Virus record (IMG/VR): IMGVR_UViG_2648501338_000019 | DNA length: 23,612 nucleotides | Strand: one strand, 5' to 3' | DNA from: a virus | Taxonomy: Duplodnaviria > Heunggongvirae > Uroviricota > Caudoviricetes | Shown here: piece after piece, positions 1-16,303 of the stretch | Numbering within the stretch: the first letter of the stretch is position 1 | Layout: each line of letters begins with the position of its first letter | Made by a program: the position numbers and the translations under genes | The notes under the pieces: generated by a model | The model's database searches: none | The model's input: the letters and a program-made list of their open reading frames with translations, nothing else | Told to the model about the DNA's origin: nothing

Positions 1-351
1 ATGCGAGAGACAGTCGAAATTATGCGTTATCCCGTCACTCTTACACCCGCGCCGGAAGGCGGTTATATGGTTTCTTTTGTGGATATCCCTGAAGCGTTGA
101 CCCAGGGCGAAACTGTCGCTGAAGCGATGGAAGCGGCAAAAGATGCTTTACTGACCGCATTTGATTTTTATTTTGAAGATAACGAGCTTATCCCGTTACC
201 TTCGCCATTAAATAGTCACGATCATTTTATTGAAGTACCTTTGAGCGTCGCCTCTAAGGTATTGCTGTTAAATGCTTTTTTACAGTCAGAAATCACTCAG
301 CAAGAGTTAGCCAGGCGAATTGGCAACCCGAATGTAGTCAACCCCAAATAA
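1..351 (+). CDS. hicB: HicB-family antitoxin, N-terminal (HicA-binding) domain only; C-terminal DNA-binding domain absent. Likely true start is the ATG at 22 (MRYPVTL...)
   Basis: Translation MRYPVTLTPAPEGGYMVSFVDIPEALTQGETVAEAMEAAKDALLTAFDFYFEDNELIPLPSPLNSHDHFIEVPLSVASKVLLLNAFLQSEITQQELARRIG matches my recollection of E. coli HicB nearly residue for residue; it then diverges (NPNVVNPK, stop) at about nt 322-330 where a full HicB would continue into its DNA-binding domain. Confidence 0.7.
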   Translation: MRETVEIMRYPVTLTPAPEGGYMVSFVDIPEALTQGETVAEAMEAAKDALLTAFDFYFEDNELIPLPSPLNSHDHFIEVPLSVASKVLLLNAFLQSEITQQELARRIGNPNVVNPK

Positions 352-574
352 CTAAAAATTTTGCAATAAAAAGCCCCATCACAAGGACAAGGCTTAGAAA
401 TCAACTAATTAACATAGTTTCCAGATCAAAAGGGTTATAATGAAATCCATAAAAGGTGATCTGTTAGCTGGGTGCTGTATATCTAAAATGTTACTTAATT
501 AATATCGTTCTGGTGGTTAGCTTTCATCGCATCCCACCAATCTTTTGTGATCTTCATGTTATTGAATTTCATAA

Positions 575-1342
575 TTATTTGCACCCGTACTGGTCAATGT
601 ATGTTCTTGAATATTTTTTATGTACTTCTAAGCGAATCATATCTTGATTATCACGCCACACATAATATTTTTTGTTATCCACTTGGCCTTCATATTGCAT
701 TGCGCCATTCTGATGCGTCACTGTTTTTGTCTTTGCTTTATGCGCGTCATAATTATCACGATACACAAATTCAATAATTTCCCCGTCTTTTACTTTAAGT
801 TTAAGTTCACCAGAGTTATAACGAGGATAGCCAATGTCTTTAACTGCTTTTGTTTCTACCCCGTCTTGGATTTCCCAGCTATAGTGAACATCGCATTGCA
901 ATGTCATGTCTCCGGTAAATCCTTTTGGTTTATCTTCAACCTTCGGTTCTTCCACCACTTTTTCTTCCTGTTTCGGTTGTTCTTCTTCAACCTTCGCAGA
1001 AGTCTCTGAAACGCTCCCTGACGCGGTTTCTTCTTTAGATAATACATTCATCAAGTTTTGGATTTGAGCGTTGTATACAGCCTCCAGTGGCTGAATCTGC
1101 CCGATATTGATCATTGTGTCACGAACAGTTTTATTCCAGTTACGTTGCTCTTGTTTAAGAGACGGATTAATCTTAACAGCCTTAACATATACTTCATGAA
1201 GTTTAGAATCCAGTGCGGAGATTGACTCATTAGCACAAATAAACTTCTCTGATTTGGTAGTAGCCTTAGTGCAATCAAAGGACGCAGCATCAGCACCGAA
1301 AGCAGTAGCAGAAAGCATGATAGCAGCGATAATGTTTTTCAT
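575..1342 (-). CDS. secreted protein with N-terminal signal peptide and LprI/DUF1311-like domain, E/K/P-rich linker and a C-terminal beta-rich domain
   Basis: ORF of 255 aa; N-terminus MKNIIAAIMLSATAFGADAAS resembles a Sec signal peptide; FDCTKATTKSEKFICANESISALDSKLHEVY...QRNWNKTVRD resembles the DUF1311/LprI fold; SD AAGAGGT upstream of the ATG on the minus strand. Confidence 0.55.
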   Translation of the reverse strand: MKNIIAAIMLSATAFGADAASFDCTKATTKSEKFICANESISALDSKLHEVYVKAVKINPSLKQEQRNWNKTVRDTMINIGQIQPLEAVYNAQIQNLMNVLSKEETASGSVSETSAKVEEEQPKQEEKVVEEPKVEDKPKGFTGDMTLQCDVHYSWEIQDGVETKAVKDIGYPRYNSGELKLKVKDGEIIEFVYRDNYDAHKAKTKTVTHQNGAMQYEGQVDNKKYYVWRDNQDMIRLEVHKKYSRTYIDQYGCK

Positions 1343-1700: not shown

Positions 1701-2255
1701 ATGAAAGAAGAATTAACCCTTACAGAAATTTCCCGTTTATATGGCTATACATTGAATGGTGGCGGTAAGCGATGGTTAGAAAGGGGATTGCCATTTAACA
1801 CCAATACCCGCCGCGTGCCAGCCAAAGAAGGAACAGAATGGGTCTTGAAAAATATTATCAACCCGCTTAAACAAACTTCTATCAAAGAACAAATCGACGT
1901 AGAGAAATTACGCCGTGAACGTGCTTTGGCAGATGCAGCCGAACGAGAGAACCAGGAAAAAATGAATCTCCTGATTCCTGTCGGTTATGTAGAACAGGAA
2001 CTAGCGGAATACTGCGGGAAAGTGAAACAGACTATTTTGCAGATTTGTACGATCGATGCCCTAGAAATTTTAGAATCCGCCACTGATCAGAAAACATTGA
2101 AGAATAAGCTAAGGGAGATCATCGAACGTCGTTTAAATGAAGTAGGGGACTTGTTCGAAAATGCAGATTTGGGAGAAGACGAGGAAGAAGAATTAGCATT
2201 AATGGATGAACCGGAACAAGAACCAGAAGAAGACGATGAATTTGATGTGTCTTAA
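1701..2255 (+). CDS. terminase small subunit, lambda Nu1-like
   Basis: 184 aa; N-terminal winged-HTH-like segment with the GGGK motif (LNGGGKRWLERGLPF) and a following KLRRERA coiled segment resemble lambda Nu1; acidic C-terminal tail; SD GGAGGA 7 nt upstream of the ATG. Confidence 0.7.
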   Translation: MKEELTLTEISRLYGYTLNGGGKRWLERGLPFNTNTRRVPAKEGTEWVLKNIINPLKQTSIKEQIDVEKLRRERALADAAERENQEKMNLLIPVGYVEQELAEYCGKVKQTILQICTIDALEILESATDQKTLKNKLREIIERRLNEVGDLFENADLGEDEEEELALMDEPEQEPEEDDEFDVS

Positions 2256-2942: not shown

Positions 2943-2967
2943 AGGGACTCTTCGGAGTCCCTTTTTT
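2943..2967 (+). terminator. rho-independent terminator (GGGACTC-TTCG-GAGTCCC + T6); overlaps the stop codon of the convergent minus-strand gene
   Basis: 7-bp perfect stem, UUCG loop, six T residues; sits at the convergence point of plus and minus transcription units. Confidence 0.6.
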
Positions 2968-3208
2968 ATGCAACAATTCGAAGTGTAGGTTTCTTATGTT
3001 GTGTAGGTTTAGTTTCATTTCGCCACTCAGGAAACACCTGATCCATCATAACCGCATTAGTCTCATCAATCAGTTTTAAGGACTTTCTCAACGCCTTATT
3101 ATCAGCTTTAAGAGTTTTAATCTCTGATTCCATCGCTACCATTCTTTCTTTCATTTTGGTAATTTCTAACATCAGATTACCAAGAAATTCTTTGTTTTGA
3201 TTAATCAT
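2966..3208 (-). CDS. hypothetical coiled-coil protein (80 aa)
   Basis: ORF immediately downstream of the 347-aa gene on the minus strand; heptad-like ITKMKERMVAMESEIKTLKADNKALRKSLKL. Confidence 0.5.
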   Translation of the reverse strand: MINQNKEFLGNLMLEITKMKERMVAMESEIKTLKADNKALRKSLKLIDETNAVMMDQVFPEWRNETKPTQHKKPTLRIVA

Positions 3209-3223
3209 AGAATTACCTCTCTA

Positions 3224-4267
3224 TTAAGCTGCGTAGGCGTAGGCGTAGGCGTAGGCGTAGGCGTAGGCGTAGGCGTAGGCGTAGGCGCTGTAGTTGGTGT
3301 CATAGATAGCGTCATGCAGTGCCATCTGTGCTTCGCGGATCTCGTCTTCGTTTACTTCAATCTCTTCTTGTTCTTCTTCGGTATCTTCCCAAGTGGTTTT
3401 GAATTTAGCCATAAAGTTATTGCGCAGGGATTCAAAGTTAGTAACAGGTGCGGATTTTTCTTCAACCGGAACTACTACCGGATCAGCTTCTTTCTGTTCT
3501 TCCTGTCCTACTTTTTCACCGTTACCCCAGCGATAGTTAAGGAGTTCTTCCAGTTCTTCATCAATGGATTTTTCTTCAACTGCTTCAACTTCAACCGCTG
3601 CTACTTCGAAAGTGGTTTCCTGCGCTGCCAGTTCAGCTTTCAGAGATGCGTTTTCAGCTTCCAGTTCAGCAATGCGTGCTTTCAGTGCTTCAACTTCGGA
3701 AGATTCAACCACTGCAACTTCTTCTTTAACTTCTTCAACTACTACCGGAGCAACTTCTTTCTGTGCTTCTTTTTTGCAGAAGAAGGAGGAAGTAACCTGT
3801 AATGCGTGGTTGTAGAAGGAACCGCCTTTAGCGGTGTTAACAGTACCAGAAACATCCTTTACAGTGGATTCAGTAGCAACAGTACGGAAGCGTTTTGCAA
3901 CTTCCTGGGTCTCTACGCCGTATTCGTTACGCTTGCTCTTGTGATGCATTACAGCACGGAAGCCGGAAGCAGTTTTAATAACAGCGAGATAGTAAGTTTC
4001 ATCGGCTTTAACAGCACGAGCGAAGCAATAAACGGATTCACCTTCTACCAGTGTAGGTTTAACGTGACGTTTGTCGAAACGGTTAGTGATCTGCCATTCA
4101 GCACCGTCTTTGATGCCAGCATTCTGACGCATTTCGGTCAGAGTCTTACCGGATACTACTTCAAAGGATTTGTCTTGTTTGCTTGCTTTACCTTCCATAA
4201 CGGTAATGTTCAGTTTGCCGTTGGATTTGATGAATAGGTTGAAGGTGATGCGCTTAGAATTTTTCAT
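3224..4267 (-). CDS. hypothetical protein (347 aa): N-terminal globular domain, acidic linker, leucine-zipper-like coiled coil, acidic region and a C-terminal (Ala-Tyr)9 dipeptide repeat
   Basis: Good SD (AGGAG) 11 nt upstream of the ATG on the minus strand; sensible amino-acid composition, whereas the overlapping plus-strand ORF 3197-3802 is a Phe-rich low-complexity antisense artefact; coiled coil EALKARIAELEAENASLKAELAAQ. Confidence 0.6.
   Translation of the reverse strand: MKNSKRITFNLFIKSNGKLNITVMEGKASKQDKSFEVVSGKTLTEMRQNAGIKDGAEWQITNRFDKRHVKPTLVEGESVYCFARAVKADETYYLAVIKTASGFRAVMHHKSKRNEYGVETQEVAKRFRTVATESTVKDVSGTVNTAKGGSFYNHALQVTSSFFCKKEAQKEVAPVVVEEVKEEVAVVESSEVEALKARIAELEAENASLKAELAAQETTFEVAAVEVEAVEEKSIDEELEELLNYRWGNGEKVGQEEQKEADPVVVPVEEKSAPVTNFESLRNNFMAKFKTTWEDTEEEQEEIEVNEDEIREAQMALHDAIYDTNYSAYAYAYAYAYAYAYAYAYAA
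3231..3284. repeat. perfect hexanucleotide microsatellite (GCGTAG)9, which encodes (Ala-Tyr)9 at the 3' end of the minus-strand gene
   Basis: Nine uninterrupted GCGTAG units read directly from the sequence, followed by a degenerate unit GCGCTG. Confidence 0.95.
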
Positions 4268-4383
4268 TTATAAATACTCCTGAATGCTGTGTTAGTTTTA
4301 ATTGTTCATTTCAAGTCTCCTTTGCTGCAACAAGGGAGGCTTTTTATTTTTAAAGCCATCATATAATTCTCAGTGAAAGTGGA

Positions 4384-4563
4384 TTAACAAACTTGAACGT
4401 TAATCTTTACCTGAATTTCGTATTTCTTCATTAGCTTATAGAATCCGCTTCTATCAATCCCTTCCTTCTTAAAGAAGTTTTCCCCGCCTCGCTCAGTGTC
4501 GCTGTAAAACCGTTTAGCAATATCAACAATCATTTCACGAGTAAATTTAACAGGTCTAGCCAT
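4384..4563 (-). CDS. small HTH DNA-binding protein (59 aa from the ATG at 4563; the ORF track extends it to a GTG at 4578)
   Basis: MARPVKFTREMIVDIAKRFYSD...GIDRSGFYKLMKKYEI has a resolvase/transposase-type HTH signature; SD GAGGAA 9 nt upstream of the ATG at 4563. Confidence 0.5.
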   Translation of the reverse strand: MARPVKFTREMIVDIAKRFYSDTERGGENFFKKEGIDRSGFYKLMKKYEIQVKINVQVC

Positions 4564-4905
4564 AAATCGATTCCTCACATGTGGATTAATAATTCCTTAA
4601 AAAAGAGCTTTTCGCTCTGAACAATTCTATTTATAAAAATGATTTTCAAAAACTCTGTAAAACAACTGTATATCCGATCAGTGGGAGCACGAATTGCTAA
4701 AGAGAAGATTAATAATTAATCAATTCGTACAATATTCGACCGAAAAAGCACTGCATATCTAACCAGTGCTGTATGAATTAACAGTTAGTCAAGGGATTTT
4801 CAGAAGTGAACAATCATTTTTCATGCATTGTATTTATACACGAAAAATCATGCTTATCATCTATATGGGGATTGTTTGGAAAATTTCAACCCCTACCAAG
4901 GATAA

Positions 4906-4936
4906 AAAGTATAAAATAGTTCTTGACACATGTCAA
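4906..4936 (-). promoter_or_regulatory. candidate sigma70 promoter firing leftward (-35 TTGACA, 17-bp spacer, -10 TATACT); the -35 lies inside the inverted repeat TTGACA-CA-TGTCAA
   Basis: Hexamers and spacing read on the minus strand; the inverted repeat places a second TTGACA on the plus strand, which suggests an operator or divergent promoter. Confidence 0.4.
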
Positions 4937-4964
4937 CATTCATGATCTAAGCGAGAAAGGTGTA

Positions 4965-5133
4965 TCAAAATTTTTGTTTGAAAATGGCAAATAATGATTA
5001 TCAACCTTTTAAACCTTATATGGCACGGAGATCTTTTGAAAATTTCTTTTAAATCATGAATTTACATCTATTTTTGGTGGTTTTTTGGTTGAATAATATA
5101 CAAGAATTTTTTGTCAAAATTTTTGATTGAAAA
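4965..5133. repeat. AT-rich region with two copies of the 20-bp direct repeat TCAAAATTTTTG(T/A)TTGAAAA (4965-4984 and 5114-5133) and related A/T tracts
   Basis: Seen directly; lies immediately upstream of the iteron array. Confidence 0.5.
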
Positions 5134-5252
5134 CCTACACTACACACCTACCCTTTAAAGGGATTGGCCTACACTACACTAGCCAGTAAACCTACACTAT
5201 AACACCCTCAAACCTACACTATGAAACCTACACACCTACACTAACCCTACAC
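5134..5252 (+). repeat. iteron-like array: 7 perfect plus 1 variant copy of CCTACAC (4 as the 10-mer AAACCTACAC) in about 120 bp, three of them at 22-bp spacing
   Basis: Copies at 5134, 5169, 5191, 5213, 5227, 5235, 5246, with variant CCTACCC at 5147; counted directly. Confidence 0.8.
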
Positions 5253-5597
5253 TTCAATCACGTAAGTGTATGACCTTGAAAGGTATTATACCCCACAGAC
5301 CATAGAATATAAAATTCGAACTAACGTTCTCCTTTTTGCTCGCTTTCTCTCACTACGTTCAAGAAAGATCTCGCAAAAAGAATACGGCGTAGCCGTGCGC
5401 GTAGCGCCCACCAACACCTTCTAAGACCTGCAAGCAGGATTCGAAAGGGATTGATAGTTCGCTTCGCTCACGTTCACGCCTACGGCGTTCACTCACTTTT
5501 AAAAGGATTTTCTTAGAAAGGGATTTAATACTAGTTACTAACTGATTCTAGTAAACGAACGAAGTGAGTAACAATCAATTTCTAGAAAGGTATTGGT

Positions 5598-5626
5598 ATC
5601 CCTTCGGGATTGCAACCTTCGGTTGC
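5598..5626 (+). other. two adjacent UUCG-loop hairpins (ATCCC-TTCG-GGGAT and GCAACC-TTCG-GTTGC) in non-coding DNA; possible RNA 3' end or processing/stability element
   Basis: Perfect stems seen in sequence; no overlapping ORF; not followed by a clean T-run. Confidence 0.35.
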
Positions 5627-5867
5627 TAAATTGCTTCCTGATTATTATTTCTTCAAAAGAAAGATTCTTATATTCTAAAGATACTTCTTCGTTTTGATGA
5701 TGATTTAATCAAATCTATGAAGGGGGGCTTTAGCCCGACTGAATCCAATCATCTTTCAAGTACAGACCAGTTTTGGACTCTACCAGATCACTCTTTTCAT
5801 AATAACAAGAATTTTCTCTTTATAAATAATATTAGATTGATTCGCTTTCTTTTAGAGGATTTCCACT

Positions 5868-6335
5868 ATGAACCATAAAATGACTACCACTACTCCTTTC
5901 ATCCTGTTAGGTTTTGATGCTGATAGCTTCCACAATGACAAGTTAATGAAGATCTTTGTTGAACGTGGTTACAACATTCTTTTCAACTCTGATGAATCTC
6001 ATTTCTCTAGTGTATGGTATGCGTTTTGCCGTAATAAGAAGCCGACCATTGTTGTTAACGTCTTCACCGATGAAGGCCGCTTAAAGTACCAGAATATTCC
6101 AGCGATCATCGTTAGCGAATACCTTCCTTTCGAAGTCCGTTCCGGTGATGTTGATCTGGGTAGCTTCTTTACTCTTCAAGAACTGGATGAAGCAATGTTT
6201 AACTACGGCAAAGAAACCGCTCAGAAAGCACCAGAACGCGATGAAGAAGACGAAGATGATGATGACTACGCACCAATCGCTTTTTCTTCTCACGGTGGCT
6301 TCTACGGTTACGATGAAGGCTTAGATATGCTGTAA
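5868..6335 (+). CDS. hypothetical protein (155 aa) with a strongly acidic C-terminal segment (ERDEEDEDDDDY)
   Basis: ATG preceded by AGAGGAT SD; no family recognised from sequence. Confidence 0.55.
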   Translation: MNHKMTTTTPFILLGFDADSFHNDKLMKIFVERGYNILFNSDESHFSSVWYAFCRNKKPTIVVNVFTDEGRLKYQNIPAIIVSEYLPFEVRSGDVDLGSFFTLQELDEAMFNYGKETAQKAPERDEEDEDDDDYAPIAFSSHGGFYGYDEGLDML

Positions 6336-6457
6336 GTTAGGTCAACCCTTTGGCATCTTGTCAAGGGGTATTGGCAAAATTTTCAGACTTTTTTATGATT
6401 ATCGCACTTGACAACTTTGAACTGATTTGACCTAGGTTTGTAAAGAGGATGTGAACT

Positions 6458-6610
6458 ATGAATACTACTAAGAAAATTGATGGACGTAAAAACCCGAACC
6501 GCAAGCCGTGGACACCAAACCTGAATTTCTCGATGGTTGATTACCACGAACGCCAGCGCCAGATTCAAGAAGAAATTGATCGCTGCCTGGCTGAATACAA
6601 AACGAGATAA
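6458..6610 (+). CDS. small basic protein (50 aa)
   Basis: Not in the ORF track (under 60 aa) but has a strong AGAGGAT SD 7 nt upstream of the ATG; product MNTTKKIDGRKNPNRKPWTPNLNFSMVDYHERQRQIQEEIDRCLAEYKTR. Confidence 0.35.
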   Translation: MNTTKKIDGRKNPNRKPWTPNLNFSMVDYHERQRQIQEEIDRCLAEYKTR

Positions 6611-6694
6611 AACTTCTTATAAATAAAATTGTTCCGGTGGTGATGCCGGAACAGGGAGGATTAAATCACTAAACCGTTAAGGGGGATTTTTACT

Positions 6695-7492
6695 ATGAAT
6701 ACTGCTGTTAAAACTGCTTCCGTGTCTCTGGTTGTTGATAACACCAAACCACTGACCATGTCTTCTCGTCAGATCGCTGAATTTACCGGAAAAGAACACA
6801 AAAACGTTAAAGCTGATATTGTTAAGATGTTTAAAGCACTTGAATTAGATGCGCTGAAATCTCAGCGTATCTATTTTGACCAATATGGACGCGAACAAAC
6901 CGAATATCACCTTGACGAAGAAATGACGCTGACTCTTGTTACTGGTTACGATGTTAAACGTCGAATGATTGTTATTCAGGAATGGAAACGACTGAAAGAA
7001 GAAAATGAAAAACTGCGTCAGGAACGTTTAGCCGTTAACCCGTATGCAGACTTTGAAGAAACCGACTGGATCGAACTGGCGTTAAAGAAAACTCGCGAGA
7101 ACAAGCAACTGATTACTCTACATCATCGCAAATCCGTAGATAGCCATTCAATGACGCGTCTGTTAGGTGCTAAAAAGGGCGCTACGAAGGTTAAAGAAGC
7201 ACTGACGGCCTTACGTACTGCCGGATACATTGAGCGCGTCTATGATGAAAATAACAAGCCGTGTGGGTATGTTGCTAATGATTCCGCGATACCGTTTTGC
7301 AGCATGAACGCTCACTATCAACTTTCTTTCACTGTTGATGTGCTTCCGGTGCTGGTTGAATTGGGTGTTCTTGAAGAAGAACAAAAAGCAGCTTTGACAC
7401 TGCCTAAACCGAATAACACGATCATGATTCAGAATAAAGCGACTATCATGATTCGTCAGAATGTTGGATCGCTAGAACACTTCGGACTGTAA
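6695..7492 (+). CDS. phage regulatory protein, Rha family (antirepressor-like N-terminal domain)
   Basis: N-terminal LTMSSRQIAEFTGKEHKNVKADIVKMF matches the Rha/pRha signature as I recall it; followed by a strong terminator. Confidence 0.6.
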   Translation: MNTAVKTASVSLVVDNTKPLTMSSRQIAEFTGKEHKNVKADIVKMFKALELDALKSQRIYFDQYGREQTEYHLDEEMTLTLVTGYDVKRRMIVIQEWKRLKEENEKLRQERLAVNPYADFEETDWIELALKKTRENKQLITLHHRKSVDSHSMTRLLGAKKGATKVKEALTALRTAGYIERVYDENNKPCGYVANDSAIPFCSMNAHYQLSFTVDVLPVLVELGVLEEEQKAALTLPKPNNTIMIQNKATIMIRQNVGSLEHFGL

Positions 7493-7500
7493 TAATTTTT

Positions 7501-7527
7501 GCCCCTGAATTTCAGGGGCTTTTTTGT
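7501..7527 (+). terminator. rho-independent terminator (GCCCCTGAA-T-TTCAGGGGC + T7)
   Basis: 9-bp perfect stem followed directly by TTTTTTG. Confidence 0.75.
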
Positions 7528-7538
7528 ATCTGTAGGTA

Positions 7539-7566
7539 TAAAAAAAGCCAACCCCGAAGGATTGGC
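7539..7566 (-). terminator. minus-strand terminator (on minus: GCCAATCC-TTCG-GGGTTGGC + T8) downstream of the 76-aa gene
   Basis: Imperfect stem with a U-run when read on the minus strand. Confidence 0.5.
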
Positions 7567-7574
7567 CTAGAGAA

Positions 7575-7805
7575 TCAATTTCCTGTTGCTTCTACCATTT
7601 CACCGTCAACCTGAACAAAGAATTTCAAATCAACTTTATGTAGGGATTTGTATAGCTGGGCTATAGATAAGCCATGCTCATTTAATACCCGTTCTTTGTT
7701 CTCTTTACCTTTCGGTGCTTGATAGTACGCTTTTACAATCTCTGCCAGTTGTTCACGATTAAAACGGGCAGGACGACCGCGAGTAGCTTTAGTAGTCATA
7801 GTCAT
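7575..7805 (-). CDS. small HTH DNA-binding protein (76 aa; an alternative ATG at 7799 has better SD spacing); paralog of the 4384-4563 product
   Basis: TRGRPARFNREQLAEIVKAYY...GLSIAQLYKSL shares the R-P-x-x-F-x-R-E...I-x-K-x-Y-Y pattern with the 59-aa protein; the only early-region gene with a TGA stop. Confidence 0.5.
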   Translation of the reverse strand: MTMTTKATRGRPARFNREQLAEIVKAYYQAPKGKENKERVLNEHGLSIAQLYKSLHKVDLKFFVQVDGEMVEATGN

Positions 7806-7833
7806 TTCTCCAAATTAAAGTGAATGTTCACCT

Positions 7834-8439
7834 TTATTTAGAGGACTTACATTTTATCGGAAAAAGTTCTCCATCGTCAACTGACATAAAAAACTCTGCC
7901 TTAATCCCGTACTTCTTCAACCGTGAATAGTATGTACCCCGACTTATATCAACCTTGCGCAGCACTTCGAAGAACTCTTTAGGATTCCTGTAATAATGGC
8001 TATATCGCACGTTAGCGAGTTCTACAAACAATTCCCTTGTATCACCATAGCCTTTCTTGAAAGCCACGTTACGATAGCGTGTAATGGCATGATTCAATCT
8101 CTTCTGTTTAAGCACTTCCCTGATCGGCTTCCACTGCAACCGATAGATTGGACCGTCATCCACTCGATAATAACGCTTGATATCAAAATCAAACCATTCA
8201 CGGACTCGCTGAAACTCTGTCTGTGATGTTCGGTGCTTCTTAAAGAAGTTATGGATATCTGTATACCCATGATCGCGATACAACTCGATTAAAATTTGCT
8301 TCGCTTCTTCGCGACTAAAACCGGATGTAGTGTAATCAGTCTTCTTGTGATGGTGCTTAACTGGCAAACGATATTCATGATCGGTACAACAAGACAAGGC
8401 TAATTCTAATTCATCTCTTTCTTGCTGATTAATTAGCAT
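7834..8439 (-). CDS. hypothetical protein (201 aa) whose C-terminus carries the same HTH motif (DISRGTYYSRLKKYGI)
   Basis: ORF with the HTH motif shared with the two small HTH proteins; transcribed divergently from the large terminase gene. Confidence 0.5.
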   Translation of the reverse strand: MLINQQERDELELALSCCTDHEYRLPVKHHHKKTDYTTSGFSREEAKQILIELYRDHGYTDIHNFFKKHRTSQTEFQRVREWFDFDIKRYYRVDDGPIYRLQWKPIREVLKQKRLNHAITRYRNVAFKKGYGDTRELFVELANVRYSHYYRNPKEFFEVLRKVDISRGTYYSRLKKYGIKAEFFMSVDDGELFPIKCKSSK

Positions 8440-8526
8440 ACACCCCCCTTAAATCTTAATACCCGTATTTATCAAAATATCAACAATTTAATAAATACCT
8501 TCATATTTCGTAATGAGGGTAATTAC

Positions 8527-10431
8527 ATGAAACTGATTTCTAATAAGGCCAAATTAAAAAAGATTCTTAAAAATATCTCTGCGGCAATTCGCCCACCTAA
8601 AACGATGAAACCTAGCGAATGGGTAGAGGCTAATGTAGTTGCAACCGATGGTGTTAAAGCCGGATCTCTAATTAAGTTGCATCCCTTCCAACGTGGAATG
8701 ATGGACGCGATCACCGAAGATAGGCGAAAAATTGTGCTAAAGTGCTCGGCACAGTTGGGTAAAACTCTTGTGCTAAACGGTATTATCTTTCACAGGATCG
8801 CCAGTAACCCTACTAATATCGGTGTTTTGCAAGCGAACGTTCGAGAATTGAACTCATGGATTGCGGGTAAGGTGAAGCCAGTATTAGAGGCAACCCCAGA
8901 ATTAAAGGCGATGATCACCGACAAATCAGATCGCAATGCCGTTAACAACTCATCGATTATTCAGCTTCGTAACGGATCATTCATGTATTTCATGTCGCTG
9001 AACAGTCCATCACACTTGCGCGGTAAGACACTGCCTTTGATTATTCTGGATGAAGTTGATGCGGCTGATGAGTCAGACGAAGGGAACCCGATCCAGCTAG
9101 CGGAACAACGCGCAACCACTTTCGGTGATGATGCAAGGATCGTAATTGCTTCTACTCCAACTTCGCGGGATGGGGCGATAAACCAACAATGGGAACTCTC
9201 GGATAAAAGAAAATACCACGTCGTTTGCCAGCATTGCGGACACAAACACGTAATGGAATGGAGTAGAGTATTCTTTGATTGGCATGTAATCAATGGTAAA
9301 TCACTGCCGAATCCAGACACAGCCGTTTACCGTTGCCCGTCATGTGAAACTGATTGGTCAGAACCAGATCGCCTCCGTGCTGTTGCTCAGGGAGAATGGG
9401 TCGCCACCGAACCAAATGCGGAAGTAATCGGTTTTCATGCTAACCGCCTTATGTCTCCGTTTAGTTCTATCCGTGCGTGTGTGGTGGACTTTGCTGATAG
9501 CTACGCGAATATGTCACTGGCAACGTTCTATAATGTGGTGCTCGGTGAAACCTTCGATGATCTTAACGAAGACCGCACAGCCGACGAACTGGAAACGCTG
9601 AAAACTGACATTAGCTTAGATAATATTCCTGATGATGTTCTGGCTCTGGTAGGTGGAGTTGACCAGCAAAAAGACCGTCTGGAATCTACCTTGCTGGGTA
9701 TCTCTCGTAAGGGGATATGCGTAGTTGATCACCGATCATTCTATGATGTGAACTGCGAACGCCACGAATCGCCAGCATATGACCAGCTTTACAACTTCCT
9801 GAAAGCTAAATTCTATACCCGATCAGGTCAACGAATCCCGATGCTATCTGCTTTCGTGGACTCATCGAACGGACGAGCTACAAACGTGATCTATCGCTTC
9901 TGCACTAGGTGGCAAAACCTATGCGCCATTAAAGGGGCAAGCAATGTTGATGCTCCAATCCTTCCGGTCAAGGACACAAGAACGGGTGGTTTTACTCTTA
10001 AAATTCTGGGCGTAAACAACCTTAAGACGATGATCCGTGAAATGATTAACCGGAACTTGAGAGACAGCGATCCTCATACGGTCTTCCAGATTGGTGACGT
10101 TCCTGATGACTACTGCGAACAATTGTTATCTGAACAGTTGAAACGGCAGGGTAATACCACACGTTGGGTAAAAGTTGGTCAGCAACGAAACGAGGCTCTC
10201 GACTGCCTGGCTTATTCCTATGCTGCTTCTCGCCATGTACTCAATAAAATGTCATGGGAAAAACTCGAAGCCATCAAAGATAGTTTGAACCGCGAACCAG
10301 AAGAACCCGTAGAAGCTCCTAAATCGCAATCTGACGAGCAAATCGAAGAAAATAAGCCAATCACACGACCACAACGTAAAAACATCGCCAGACGCCCAAA
10401 TAGAGGCCGTAGCTGGGTAACATCGTTCTAA
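8527..10431 (+). CDS. terminase large subunit, lambda GpA family
   Basis: 634 aa; Walker A-like KCSAQLGKT, Walker B-like LIILDEVD, and overall length and layout like lambda gpA (N-terminal ATPase, C-terminal nuclease); strong SD. Confidence 0.9.
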   Translation: MKLISNKAKLKKILKNISAAIRPPKTMKPSEWVEANVVATDGVKAGSLIKLHPFQRGMMDAITEDRRKIVLKCSAQLGKTLVLNGIIFHRIASNPTNIGVLQANVRELNSWIAGKVKPVLEATPELKAMITDKSDRNAVNNSSIIQLRNGSFMYFMSLNSPSHLRGKTLPLIILDEVDAADESDEGNPIQLAEQRATTFGDDARIVIASTPTSRDGAINQQWELSDKRKYHVVCQHCGHKHVMEWSRVFFDWHVINGKSLPNPDTAVYRCPSCETDWSEPDRLRAVAQGEWVATEPNAEVIGFHANRLMSPFSSIRACVVDFADSYANMSLATFYNVVLGETFDDLNEDRTADELETLKTDISLDNIPDDVLALVGGVDQQKDRLESTLLGISRKGICVVDHRSFYDVNCERHESPAYDQLYNFLKAKFYTRSGQRIPMLSAFVDSSNGRATNVIYRFCTRWQNLCAIKGASNVDAPILPVKDTRTGGFTLKILGVNNLKTMIREMINRNLRDSDPHTVFQIGDVPDDYCEQLLSEQLKRQGNTTRWVKVGQQRNEALDCLAYSYAASRHVLNKMSWEKLEAIKDSLNREPEEPVEAPKSQSDEQIEENKPITRPQRKNIARRPNRGRSWVTSF

Positions 10432-12565: not shown

Positions 12566-14572
12566 ATGCTTAAATTTCGCCGCGATCTTAACGGTTACGG
12601 TGGAGTTATTAACGAAGGGCAGAATGATCAATACGAATTTGAAATTGCTTTCTCCAGTGAACAGCCTTATCAGCGCCAATTCTGGGATGAGCAAAATCAA
12701 GAAATGGTGGTATTAGATGAAATTCTGGTACATACACCGGAAGCGGTTGATCTGTCTCGTCTGAATAATAACGCTCCGTTGCTGTTCAATCATAATTTCG
12801 ATAATCATATTGGTGTCGTTTGTAACGCTCGAATCGATGCGGATAACGTAGGTCGTGCTCTGGTTAAATTCTCTAAGCATGGCACTTTGGCTAATGATAT
12901 TCGTAATAAAGTCATTGAAGGTACGATGGAAAAAATTTCTGTCGGTTATGACATTAAAGAATATCACATCGACTACACCAAAGGACAATTGATTGTTACT
13001 AAATGGATTCCTCACGAGGTTTCATGGGTGTCTGTTCCCGCAGACGACACCGTGGGTCTGAATCGCTCTCTAAATACTATCACAGTTAATTTGGAGGCTA
13101 AACGCGATATGACTAAAGAACAAATCGAAGAAATCAAAGAAGAACAAGAACCCGCTCAGGTTGAAGAAACTCCGGTAGAAGAAAATAAAGAACCGGAAGT
13201 AGAAGAAACTCAAGAGCGCCAAGTTGAAGAGAATAAAGAAGATGAAAATCTCGAAGACGGAAAAGACGCTAAACATCCTGAAAGTGTTGATGATGATAGT
13301 TCAACTGTTCGGGAAACAGAAGAAGTAAAAGAAGAACGTGAAGCCGCTCCGGTTGAAGAAGAAAAAATCGAAGAAGTGGCTGAACGTTCCGAAGAAGACG
13401 AAGAAGAAATCCGAGCAATCGCTCGTGAGTTAAATATTAACGACGAAGAATTAGAACGCGCATTGGCAGTTAAAGATATGACGCCGGAAGCATTCCGCAC
13501 TAAGGCACTAAATAACATTACCAATGCTCAACGTAATAACGAACAAATTAATAAGGAACAAATCATGGAAAAAACTTTCGATCTTAATAACGTAATCCGC
13601 TCCCTGGTAGATGGCGACGTGCTCGGCGCTAACGAAGCTGAATATTCCGCTATGGCTGCTGGTGCTGCAATGCAGCGTGGTCGTGCTGCTCGCGGTGGCT
13701 CTGTATTCGTTCCGGCTGCTGCTCTGCGTGCTGCTTCCGAAGGTAACACCAAAGCTACTCTGACCGCTGTAACCGACGAAAAACTGCTGACCGAATCCTA
13801 TGTAGAAATGCTGCTTCCACAGTCTGTTCTGGGTCGTCTGGGTGTGACTGTTCTGTCTGGTCTGAATAGCCCGATTGCAGTACCAAAAATGACTGCTTCC
13901 AGCGTCGAAGCCTTTGGTTTTGTTGATGAAAATGGAAGTGCCCCCGAATCGAAGGCTAGCTTTGAAAACGTGAAAATGGCTCCGAAAACTTTTGCTGGTG
14001 GCAACCCGATCAGCCGTCAGTCTCTGAAAACTGTTCCGAATATTGCTACCCTGATCACTGATCACATTAACAAATCTGTTCGGATCAAACTGGAACAACT
14101 GATTCTGTCTGACAAAGACAACGAGCGCGGTCCGAAAGGTCTGGTTAAGCAACTGGTAGACGGTGGTCGCGTTACTAAGAAAGCCGCTTTTAGCTACAAA
14201 GACTTCCTGAAAGAAATTGCAGCACTGACCGACGCTGGCGTTCCGGCACAGTCCATCAAGTTTGCAATGAGCGGTGCAACTGCTGCTGAACTGGAATCTA
14301 CCCTGAAAGATAACGGCGTTTCCGGTTATATCATCGAAAACGGCAAACTGGCTGGTTACGATGTAGTTACTTCTGGCGTTATTCCGGCAGACCACATCGT
14401 TCTGGGTGACTTCTCCGGTATCATGATCGGTGAATGGGGTGGTCTGGAACTGGATATGGACGACACCACTTACCGCGCACAGTCTGCTATCGTTCCGCGT
14501 ATCTGGGTAGACCTGGACTTCACCGTAGTTCAGCCGGAAGCTCTGAAAGTTCTTCACATCTCCGCTGAATGA
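12566..14572 (+). CDS. prohead protease - acidic scaffold-like linker - HK97-fold major capsid protein fusion (668 aa); TGA stop
   Basis: N-terminal region resembles HK97-family prohead protease, the middle about 130 aa is E/K-rich (scaffold/delta-like), the C-terminal about 330 aa resembles HK97-type major capsid proteins; lies between portal and neck genes. Confidence 0.8.
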   Translation: MLKFRRDLNGYGGVINEGQNDQYEFEIAFSSEQPYQRQFWDEQNQEMVVLDEILVHTPEAVDLSRLNNNAPLLFNHNFDNHIGVVCNARIDADNVGRALVKFSKHGTLANDIRNKVIEGTMEKISVGYDIKEYHIDYTKGQLIVTKWIPHEVSWVSVPADDTVGLNRSLNTITVNLEAKRDMTKEQIEEIKEEQEPAQVEETPVEENKEPEVEETQERQVEENKEDENLEDGKDAKHPESVDDDSSTVRETEEVKEEREAAPVEEEKIEEVAERSEEDEEEIRAIARELNINDEELERALAVKDMTPEAFRTKALNNITNAQRNNEQINKEQIMEKTFDLNNVIRSLVDGDVLGANEAEYSAMAAGAAMQRGRAARGGSVFVPAAALRAASEGNTKATLTAVTDEKLLTESYVEMLLPQSVLGRLGVTVLSGLNSPIAVPKMTASSVEAFGFVDENGSAPESKASFENVKMAPKTFAGGNPISRQSLKTVPNIATLITDHINKSVRIKLEQLILSDKDNERGPKGLVKQLVDGGRVTKKAAFSYKDFLKEIAALTDAGVPAQSIKFAMSGATAAELESTLKDNGVSGYIIENGKLAGYDVVTSGVIPADHIVLGDFSGIMIGEWGGLELDMDDTTYRAQSAIVPRIWVDLDFTVVQPEALKVLHISAE

Positions 14573-14701
14573 ACTAACGTAGAACCATCTGAACCTTCCC
14601 CCGATTTGGGGGAAGAAAATCTGATTCCATCTCAGGAAGAAGAATCTCAGACGGTTACGGCGAAAGCCACAGTTAAAAAACAACGTAAAACTAAAGAATA
14701 A
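14573..14701 (+). CDS. in-frame 42-codon extension after the capsid gene TGA (TNVEPSEPSPDLGEENLIPSQEEESQTVTAKATVKKQRKTKE, then TAA TAA); candidate readthrough product
   Basis: Frame checked codon by codon; no start codon with an SD inside; homologous to the extension after the major tail gene. Confidence 0.4.
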   Translation, partial: TNVEPSEPSPDLGEENLIPSQEEESQTVTAKATVKKQRKTKE

Positions 14702-14706
14702 TAATT

Positions 14707-14734
14707 AGCCCTGCCTAACGGTGGGGCTTTTTTG
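14707..14734 (+). terminator. rho-independent terminator (AGCCCTGCC-TAAC-GGTGGGGCT + T6)
   Basis: 9-bp stem with two G-U pairs followed by TTTTTTG; near-identical copy after the major tail gene. Confidence 0.8.
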
Positions 14735-14763
14735 TATGTAAATACTCCATAAAGGGGGTAACT

Positions 14764-15054
14764 ATGTTCAAATTATCAGAATCACAATTAAATCGAATGT
14801 TTAAAAGTGCTCCTGTATTTTCGGTGGAAGGTGGTAAATCAATTCGTGCTTACCATGAAATTACTACTACCGACGAATCAGGTGTAATGACAGAAACCGA
14901 ATTTCTATTCTGTCGTGAGGGAGACTTAAAGCAAGGTGATATTGTCACAGTAGAAAACCAGCGTTTCAAAGTTCAATACGTTAAGCGCAATGGTGACAAT
15001 ACTTGTGATTGCTTTATCACTTTAGCAGGGGGTACACATGCTCGCTACCGTTAA
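14764..15054 (+). CDS. putative head-tail adaptor / head completion protein (96 aa)
   Basis: Size and position immediately after the capsid gene; conserved AAAGGGGGTAAC initiation motif. Confidence 0.45.
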   Translation: MFKLSESQLNRMFKSAPVFSVEGGKSIRAYHEITTTDESGVMTETEFLFCREGDLKQGDIVTVENQRFKVQYVKRNGDNTCDCFITLAGGTHARYR

Positions 15055-15460
15055 TAATATGCCGAGACTGAAAATCAAACGCGCCTTGCAAGATATTATC
15101 GAACAAGATTTAGGTCTGGCTTTAAACGTAGAACAAACTCAGCAAGGCTTTAGTGATGACGTGGTTTGTTGGATTACTGGCATGAATGAAACTTATACGC
15201 GTGTTCGTGGTGGTAATGCAATGCAAGCTGAATGCGTTATCGAAATGCAATTATATTCTCAGATTCATGAAACAAAAATCCATGAGGGTATTTGCCAGAT
15301 AATCCAGATTCAGCCGGATAACCCACGATTTAAAGATTTGGGCTTCTCTATTTCAGATATCACTCCAGTAGCTTCTAATACCGATTATGACGATGATTCT
15401 AGTGATGGGGGTATCGTTGGGACACTTAGCCTTAAATTTTCTTATCTAGCGCGTTTTTAA
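15038..15460 (+). CDS. putative neck / tail completion protein (140 aa); overlaps the upstream gene by 17 nt
   Basis: Synteny; SD AGGGGG 6 nt upstream of the ATG; overlap suggests translational coupling. Confidence 0.45.
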   Translation: MLATVNNMPRLKIKRALQDIIEQDLGLALNVEQTQQGFSDDVVCWITGMNETYTRVRGGNAMQAECVIEMQLYSQIHETKIHEGICQIIQIQPDNPRFKDLGFSISDITPVASNTDYDDDSSDGGIVGTLSLKFSYLARF

Positions 15461-15469
15461 GGGGTAATA

Positions 15470-16303
15470 ATGAATATTACACAAGATAACTTAGATATTT
15501 TCACTGGATCACATGTTGAAGTGTCGATCTCTAACCAGATAGACAATCAGGTCGACTTTTTCGATCCTAGCTTTAGTTCTATGGAGAACATCGCAGCATT
15601 CCCTACGCTAACCGAATCCACAGAGATAGAAACTCTGGAAGAGTACGATCAGGACGCTACGGGGAAACTTGCTGGTTATCGTAGACTGGAACCGACAACA
15701 CTCACATTAAACCGTGTTCTTGACGATGAACATCAAGCAATGTTGATGAAAGCGGTAGAGGATAAAACACCTTTACGCTTCCGTATGTTCTATGTTGTGA
15801 ACTCTGGCTATAGTGCTGCTAACACAGGGTACTTTTGTATATTCGATGCTTACGTCACATCACATAAAACCCGTGGTAGTGATAACAAAGCTGTAACACT
15901 GGAATTTAAACTTGAACCAGATGGCGGGATTTTGGCAAGGGGTATTGCTACCGAAGGCCGGATCTTACGTCAGGGTGATTTTGGTTTGGGTGCTGGTGTA
16001 AATCCATTCACGGGTCCGATTGACAGCGAGGCATTAGCCGGAAACCGTTTCGTAACTTACAAGGGAACTGCTAGCGGTAATCCATATTCAACCGACACAG
16101 CATTAATTCACCTTCAAGCTAATGAGCATGGCGCATGGCAATTAACCTGTAATACTTCTGGCGCACCGCGTTTACGTGTCCGAAATATTCAGGAAAACGG
16201 TCGTTCTGAATGGATCAAGGTATATTCCACCAATGAGAAACCGACACCTAGCGAAATTGGCGCAGTGGCTAAGACTGACCGGATCGATTTCGGCGAATAC
16301 TAA
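15470..16303 (+). CDS. hypothetical structural protein (277 aa), candidate collar or fibre-anchoring protein; C-terminus shares the KPTPxE(I/L)G motif with the fibre
   Basis: Located between neck genes and the fibre gene; C-terminal NEKPTPSEIGAVAKTD parallels GDKPTPTELGVYSKAEVD and KKPTPEQLSQGEIA in the fibre. Confidence 0.5.
   Translation: MNITQDNLDIFTGSHVEVSISNQIDNQVDFFDPSFSSMENIAAFPTLTESTEIETLEEYDQDATGKLAGYRRLEPTTLTLNRVLDDEHQAMLMKAVEDKTPLRFRMFYVVNSGYSAANTGYFCIFDAYVTSHKTRGSDNKAVTLEFKLEPDGGILARGIATEGRILRQGDFGLGAGVNPFTGPIDSEALAGNRFVTYKGTASGNPYSTDTALIHLQANEHGAWQLTCNTSGAPRLRVRNIQENGRSEWIKVYSTNEKPTPSEIGAVAKTDRIDFGEY

Follow-up and report, generated by a model that had tools for sequence, protein, structure and literature searches.

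Small regulators of phage switches include the Cro/CI-type repressors and the Mor/C late activators of Mu. In plasmid cop modules (CopG-RNAII-RepB of pMV158, CopR-RNAIII-RepR of pIP501, CopB-CopA-RepA of R1), a copy-control repressor is encoded upstream of rep, with a countertranscript between the two; CopG itself is a ribbon-helix-helix protein, not a helix-turn-helix (HTH) protein. HTH domains also occur in IS3 OrfA proteins and in Hin, whose HTH_7 domain is fused C-terminally to a serine-recombinase catalytic domain and which, as seen in the Hin-DNA complex, has a minor-groove arm. Here we analyse three HTH proteins of 59, 76 and 201 aa (p59, p76 and p201) encoded in a 23,612-nucleotide stretch of a tailed phage (IMG/VR record IMGVR_UViG_2648501338_000019; hereafter the window), which makes up the left half of a prophage of E. 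coli.

The three proteins carry neither the XRE/Cro nor the Mor sequence signature. They differ from CI/Cro and Mor/C in helix topology and in an added hairpin and, compared to CI/Cro, they form a set of three paralogues, one of them internally tandem-duplicated, instead of an unrelated pair. The explanation we favour, with confidence evenly balanced between belief and doubt, is that they are the temperate phage's own transcriptional regulators, p59 acting as an autoregulator and p201/p76 in repression and/or late control. A first-pass annotation of the window had suggested that they form a regulatory set, possibly one that reads nearby repeats. The regulatory set is still plausible, since no other DNA-binding proteins can be recognised in the whole prophage besides Rha, a small terminase (TerS)-like protein and the integrase; the reading of the repeats is not supported, as detailed below.

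Three paralogous proteins carry four copies of one module

The open reading frames (ORFs) are present on the minus strand where the first-pass annotation had placed them, and their modules could be delimited as follows:

4384-4563, minus strand: p59, a 59-aa single-module HTH protein (ORF, ribosome-binding site (RBS), homology by profile with p76 and the two modules of p201)
7575-7805, minus strand: p76, a single-module HTH protein with a C-terminal beta-hairpin (open frame, AlphaFold2 (AF2) model)
7834-8439, minus strand: p201, a two-module HTH protein, divergent from terL
8125-8322, minus strand: p201 module N, residues ~40-105 (BLASTP, hhalign, AF2)
7852-8049, minus strand: p201 module C, residues ~131-196 (BLASTP, hhalign, AF2)

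The 59-aa call for p59 is correct: its ATG is preceded at 8 nt by a GAGGA Shine-Dalgarno sequence, and the N-terminus MARPVKFTRE is invariant among homologues. For p76, a GGAG box shows better spacing to the ATG at 7799, which is likely the true start and gives the 74 aa listed in databases. p59 is the first gene of a leftward unit, p59-cc347-p80, and p76 is the second gene of a p201-p76 operon with a terminator at 7568-7545 on the minus strand; p201 and p76 are adjacent in every case.

BLASTP related p59 to p76 (E=1e-7) and to the C-terminal half of p201 (residues 134-187, E=5e-7), with a second match to p201 residues 41-88 (E=0.004), while the pairwise comparison of p76 and p201 was not significant (E=0.46). 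Comparing family profiles with hhalign gave significant values for all six pairs of modules, from 4.6e-12 to 2.3e-5 (p59~p76, 4.6e-12; p59~p201N, 3e-8; p59~p201C, 1.5e-7; p76~p201N, 3e-8; p76~p201C, 3e-8; p201N~p201C, 2.3e-5). The similarity extends over a common module of ~55-65 aa and is beyond chance, so that, judged by their profiles, p59, p76 and p201 are paralogues, as had been proposed. Since all six pairs are significant, p201 must have arisen by internal duplication, which brings the copies of the module in the phage to four. The three copies counted at first included the one at the C-terminal end of p201, which is indeed there, and missed a second one at residues ~40-105.

Orthologues were collected from 48 related loci and a large protein database. 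Intact orthologues of the three HTH genes, with 42-100% identity and in the same order, were found in prophages of E. coli, Salmonella and Proteus, and the positions of the three genes are kept in these relatives.

The module is a predicted tri-helical HTH with a basic arm

AF2 models of p76 and p201, built from the family alignments, contain three helices per module followed by a beta-hairpin, in p76 as well as in both p201 modules, with predicted local distance difference test (pLDDT) values of 80-90 within modules. In p76 (pLDDT 81) the helices span residues 15-27, 32-41 and 46-55, and the strands 60-64 and 67-71. p201 reaches a pLDDT of 71 overall and 80-90 inside its modules: module N has helices at 43-57, 62-68 and 73-83 and a beta-hairpin at 87-101, and module C has helices at 135-148, 153-162 and 167-176, with a beta strand at 181-187 and in the residues after it. 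The hairpins of p76 and of both p201 modules bear a conserved [FY][FY]x[VI]DDGx[ILV][FY]. In the alignment, p59 corresponds to the helical part of the module, with the N-terminal arm MARPVKFTRE, three predicted helices and a short C-terminal tail, VKINVQVC, after which it ends. The predicted fold is thus that of a tri-helical HTH preceded by a basic arm. Disorder is predicted by AF2 for the p201 N-terminus (1-30) and linker (112-126). In two loci (L036 and L040, ~10001-10060) the 5' end of the p201 gene has extra tandem 15-nt units (…LVLSCLVLSC…), which either lengthen this disordered stretch or change its reading frame.

Scans of the three proteins against Pfam, NCBIfam, PHROGs and PADLOC returned nothing at threshold. 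The sole hint from a curated library was a match of p76 to HTH_Tnp_1 (PF01527; 14.1 bits against a cut-off of 24.1, E=0.055), a family to which p59 and p201 gave no match at all. Neither the module profile nor the p201 profile found a significant sequence match in the PDB, and fold searches returned only weak, generic DNA-binding three-helix domains, the best viral match being a phage 'transposase' (E=0.06). An exhaustive search of 1.84 billion representative proteins with the module profile yielded 30 proteins. Part of them belong to the family's own lineage, truncated and fragmentary copies included, a few are small relatives (P0080, P0084 and P0096), and the remaining matches include longer proteins with several matched stretches. 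Six of the longer ones were scanned and proved to be tandem arrays of HTH_Tnp_1, HTH_23, HTH_28 or HTH_7, or an IS3 OrfA-like protein. The nearest relatives outside the lineage hence appear to be arrays of IS3-transposase/resolvase-type HTHs, and the 'resolvase/transposase-type' label of the first-pass annotation is therefore fair as a statement of fold and superfamily, with membership of a curated family below threshold.

The phage modules differ from IS3 OrfA HTHs, HTH_23, HTH_28 and the HTH_7 of Hin: they score below the Pfam threshold, stand alone or as an internal duplication and, in p76 and both halves of p201, have an additional C-terminal beta-hairpin. Unlike in Hin, no resolvase or transposase catalytic domain is attached to p59, p76 or p201, and no transposase gene adjoins them in the window or in intact relatives; the insertion sequence (IS) elements present in some loci are unrelated secondary insertions.

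We infer that these are DNA-binding proteins, which would make up a lineage-specific family of sequence-specific binders built on one tri-helical module of the Hin/IS3-OrfA/homeodomain-like class. Ahead of helix 1, the conserved arm, (G/A)RPxxF, recalls that of Hin and, by this analogy, probably lies in the minor groove. The C-terminal beta-hairpin probably pairs modules. p76 is probably a homodimer, and p201 would be a covalent two-module 'pseudo-dimer'.

The family is a new and narrowly distributed one, of an ordinary kind of protein. Apart from prophages of E. coli, Shigella, Salmonella and Proteus, its only sources so far are another prophage contig and a T4-like contig, with p59 homologues limited to this prophage lineage and the T4-like contig. 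Searches with p201, p59, cc347 and the T4-like cassette proteins (tblastn/megablast) gave no match in 50,697 phage records and 72,556 plasmids, and two scans of GTDB species representatives plus a further IMG/VR scan revealed no new contexts. All members are currently annotated as 'hypothetical protein', so the family definition should help annotation.

p59 heads a portable cassette

p59 lies between a long non-coding region and two leftward genes, in a cassette with the following elements:

2966-3208, minus strand: 80-aa gene (p80)
3224-4267, minus strand: cc347, a 347-aa coiled-coil (cc) protein, downstream of p59
4269-4352, plus strand: candidate short antisense RNA (~70 nt) between p59 and cc347 (terminator scan; hairpin at 4313-4342, then a U-tract)
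4564-5867: non-coding region of 1.3 kb
5127-5260, plus strand: type I iterons, seven copies of CCTACAC, on one strand only

The order is iterons, promoter, p59, antisense-oriented terminator, iteron-matched cc protein and, where present, the 80-aa protein; all temperate relatives, as well as a T4-like cassette, have p59 and the cc gene in this order. An antisense-oriented hairpin with a U-tract is found in the p59-cc spacer of every relative, the T4-like contig included, and shows compensatory changes in 5 of its 11 pairs. In the window, the hairpin at 4313-4342 and the U-tract after it are oriented the 'wrong' way relative to the p59 and cc347 genes. A TATAAATA word lies opposite the cc347 RBS, and the same is seen in most relatives.

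The T4-like copy is carried by a 168-kb contig (L050; ENA ERZ27275837), where it occupies positions 4850-6625, between genes 3 and 2. It consists of hairpin-rich DNA, ~12 AGCGATTAC iterons, a TTGACA promoter, a p59 homologue, a homologue of the cc347 N-domain (E=3e-10) and an 80-aa ORF. The p59 homologue (64 aa) keeps the N-terminus MARPVKFTRE beside unrelated iterons. Given that a T4-like contig carries the cassette, p59 therefore belongs functionally to the cassette and not to lysogeny as such. That one cassette is, from its sequence and layout, common to a prophage lineage and to a lytic T4-like phage, and portable, is among the reasons why the locus deserves attention.

The layout is that of a cop module: a small DNA-binding-type protein is encoded first, directly upstream of a gene whose product (cc347) matches the nearby iteron array, and between the two lie an antisense-oriented terminator and a promoter-like word over the RBS of the second gene. 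The phage cassette differs from plasmid cop modules in that no sequence relationship was found, the host element is a phage and not a plasmid, and its replication function, antisense RNA and repression are all putative. Under this comparison p59 would most likely repress the cassette's own promoter, in a Cop- or Cro-like manner.

p201 and p76 share a control region with the late operon

The p201-p76 pair is found at the other side of a rightward unit, next to the large terminase gene:

5868-7492, plus strand: rightward unit made up of two genes, of 155 and 50 aa, and a Rha/anti-repressor-like gene
8440-8526: p201-terL control region, 87 bp (alignment of 27 distinct variants)
8527-10431, plus strand: gpA-type large terminase (terL), followed by portal, protease-capsid fusion, fibre and tail genes

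From E. coli to Proteus the control region hardly varies. At its core are two inverted ATAAATAC words, at 8465-8472 and 8491-8498, one facing each gene, which are candidate promoter or operator elements. An inverted repeat, GTATTTAT-N18-ATAAATAC, was considered as a dimer operator and dropped as the main reading: the spacing is N26 in Proteus and ~N2 in L039. As for GTATTTAT as an operator arm, several of its matches elsewhere are merely RBS spacers. Both arms are better explained as the same ATAAATAC word, which stands before most transcription units, serving two divergent promoters.

p201 and p76 form a separate operon that shares its 87-bp control region with the late (terminase, structural) operon, and the pair is the best candidate for a prophage maintenance repressor and/or a late-gene regulator. 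This assignment is made in part by elimination, because no other repressor-like protein was found: elsewhere in the prophage, no CI/XRE-type repressor or further HTH protein is detectable (Rha, the TerS-like protein and the integrase aside). No recognisable replication genes were found in the prophage lineage either, and a lineage in which neither repressor nor replication genes can be recognised is of interest in its own right.

The control-region words belong to a wider pattern. ATAAATA occurs nine times in the window (1664, 4270, 4634, 4837, 5822, 6619, 8472, 8491 and 21098), always in the 17.5% of it that is non-coding, and in seven cases it faces a start codon that follows 26-69 nt downstream; the pattern is repeated in the Proteus, Salmonella and L049 relatives. 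The word may be a promoter element, an HTH target, or both. It often sits within TATAAATAC, which resembles a T4 late promoter.

Alternatively, the paralogues might act as promoter-specificity factors, be it as activators or as sigma-like adaptors, on the ATAAATA(C)-type promoters located before nearly every transcription unit of the lineage. The non-coding location and orientation of the words are in line with this, as are the inverted pair at the conserved core of the p201-terL control region and the co-occurrence of the word with the HTH family in the E. coli, Salmonella and Proteus prophages examined. However, the number of words in the window is not above chance (9 versus 6.6 expected), AT-rich intergenic DNA is prone to contain such words, in two cases the word can be fitted between ordinary sigma-70 hexamers, and a contact with RNA polymerase is purely conjectural. 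We regard this explanation as unlikely. A broader version, which we hold to be improbable, is a lineage without a CI/Cro repressor, in which the whole programme is run by the duplicated HTH module: p201, p76 and p59 would act directly at (T)ATAAATA(C) elements of T4-late-like sequence, where they would confer promoter specificity or form a graded set of repressors of one word, with p59 also moving between temperate and T4-like phages within the self-contained iteron/antisense RNA/initiator cassette.

The arrangement beside terL is not universal. In the distant relative L049, the iterons are directly followed by a single leftward operon, headed by the homologues of p201 and p76, that also holds those of p59 and the cc protein; on the other side the Rha unit runs straight into terL, and p201/p76 are not beside it. 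The paralogues probably arose as tandem genes in one operon, and the position of p201/p76 next to terL is likely secondary.

Several observations weigh against the paralogues being the regulators of this phage in the way we favour. A stop within helix 3 of module N interrupts the p201 homologue of L049 (9554-10354), and p201 is therefore dispensable there, at least for prophage carriage. The target sites of p59, p76 and p201 are candidates, and ATAAATA(C), the only word common to all control regions, could also be just part of a promoter and not an operator. For p59, the likeness to Cop is one of gene order only, homologues of p59 and cc347 being absent from the 72,556 plasmids, and the initiator role of cc347 that it calls upon is itself putative. 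Finally, the multi-repeat proteins matched by the module profile gain score by adding up weak matches.

Excision and packaging

The first 351 bases of the window code for the N-terminal part of HicB, an antitoxin. The same prophage interrupts hicB in complete genomes, where it is ~36 kb long, with IS elements coming in addition, and its far end carries a large serine recombinase followed by the rest of hicB; insertion into hicB is by this recombinase, a separate protein of 532 aa encoded ~30 kb from the HTH genes. hicB is the antitoxin gene of a hicAB toxin-antitoxin pair, and hicA is intact beside the truncated hicB (window 1-575; L008/L009).

One of the paralogues, most likely p76 or p59, could be the recombination directionality factor for excision from hicB. 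Such factors are small, diverse and often encoded far from int when they serve serine integrases, and the prophage has a large serine recombinase with no annotated factor. Yet they act by protein-protein contact, for which an HTH is not needed; moreover, the p59 homologue is found in a lytic T4-like contig with no integrase among its called genes, and the HTH genes are positionally unlinked to int. An excision role is thus improbable.

An involvement of p201 and p76 in recognition of the packaging site, as small-terminase-like HTHs working with the gpA-type large terminase, is more doubtful still. They lie immediately upstream of terL, many TerS N-domains are HTHs of this class, and Sf6_terminase and Phage_terminase appear among the Pfam matches of the distant repeat proteins. 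Nevertheless, p201/p76 are transcribed away from terL and are not adjacent to it in L049, their models lack an oligomerisation domain, and there is a better TerS candidate in the window:

1701-2255, plus strand: small-terminase-like gene (p184; phrog_57 at 6e-11)

In L049, the orthologue of this gene gave faint Phage_Nu1/DUF1441 matches and has a Nu1-like N-terminus.

Iteron type follows the coiled-coil protein

Four repeat words, AAACCTACACT, TTTGCCCCTGAA, ATCCCCGT and CATCCCTAGC, occupy the same position among related prophages. TTTGCCCCTGAA is found in 20 loci and ATCCCCGT in 2, and one Proteus prophage has 16 copies of CATCCCTAGC. Two more types are present in L049 (TCRRATGCYA) and in the T4-like contig (AGCGATTAC). 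We clustered the cc proteins encoded downstream of p59 by their N-terminal 170 residues and observed a one-to-one correspondence between N-domain cluster and iteron type in all temperate loci compared (41/41). L049 and the T4-like contig, assigned by inspection, add two further iteron types, each with its own cc N-domain cluster.

The HTH proteins show no such coupling. The p59 class that is 96-100% identical to that of the window is found with type I and type II iterons (identical p59 proteins being present with both), and the class at ~55% identity with types I to IV. Neither the two classes of p76 nor those of p201 follow iteron type; they, too, assort freely. Because the cc N-domain matches iteron type and the HTH variants do not, the specificity partner of the iterons is therefore cc347, which, on this covariation, is likely the iteron binder and possibly a replication initiator. 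Iteron and cc N-domain look like an exchangeable binder/site pair that sets origin or immunity specificity.

That the HTH proteins would recognise the AAACCTACAC iterons or the GAAAGGGATT words of region 4580-5870 is accordingly the least probable proposal of all: a p59 gene adjoining the repeat-bearing non-coding region, iterons directly upstream of the p201 homologue in L049 and a predicted DNA-binding fold would favour it, but p59, p76 and p201 variants are independent of the repeat type that the cc N-domain tracks, the T4-like p59 homologue keeps its N-terminal arm beside unrelated iterons, and the GAAAGGGATT words sit among hairpins with compensatory changes. The likely partners are thereby redirected, cc347 to the iterons and the HTH proteins to promoters. 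The context is more interesting than the proteins themselves, with iteron/binder pairs swapped like immunity cassettes.

The protein downstream of p59 is 309-351 aa long across loci L002-L048. In cc347, the C-terminus has an (Ala-Tyr)n run (…AYAYAYAYAYAYAYAYAA), which goes back to a short tandem repeat in the DNA (3224-3290, minus strand); type I cc proteins range from 328 to 351 aa among relatives, possibly via this repeat.

Other signals in the non-coding region

The stretch between 5275 and 5640 contains several hairpins, some with UUCG loops (ATCCCTTCGGGAT, GCAACCTTCGGTTGC), among GAAAGG[GT]ATT words. The GAAAGGGATT words lie among these hairpins, and Salmonella L048 keeps the pairing through compensatory changes. 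This part looks like a structured RNA or DNA element more than an array of protein sites; no Rfam family was found for it.

Three LexA-box-like CTG-N10-CAG sites are located at 4664-4683, 4749-4768 and 4767-4786. They are the only matches in the window with at least 13/20 positions of the consensus, and are conserved in one leader variant. In the same region, Salmonella L048 has TACTGTATATTCATACAGTA, an 18/20 match to the LexA consensus that overlaps a TTGATT-N16-TATACT promoter. These motifs suggest that the region may be under SOS control. No strict coupling emerged between the class of p59 and the variant of the leader that precedes its gene.

Palindromic, back-to-back -35 boxes (TTGACACATGTCAA) are found at 4925-4938, and the leftward promoter is near consensus (TTGACA-17-TATACT). 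A terminator-like hairpin at 4604-4618 lies immediately 5' of the p59 RBS, where all relatives have it too; it may act in attenuation or stabilise the 5' end.

The prophage and its relatives

The remaining gene of the left end is:

575-1342, minus strand: LprI-like gene

The window contains no tRNAs and no match to Rfam families. Relatives of the prophage are present in 58 of 5,426 complete E. coli genomes (~1%). A literature search turned up no relevant description of a hicB-integrated prophage, and megablast found no close cultured phage, the best TerL match being at 44%. In L049, the prophage end (14543-16174) carries a reverse-transcriptase-TIR gene, likely defence cargo.

The closest cultured-phage TerL (44% identity) is at the start of the 141-kb record of Escherichia phage DCP80 (L001; PQ671644.1). 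This record is classified as a T4-like Gaprivervirus, and the genes after TerL have sizes consistent with the prophage gene order; either the record is chimeric or it is another tie between the prophage lineage and T4-like phages.

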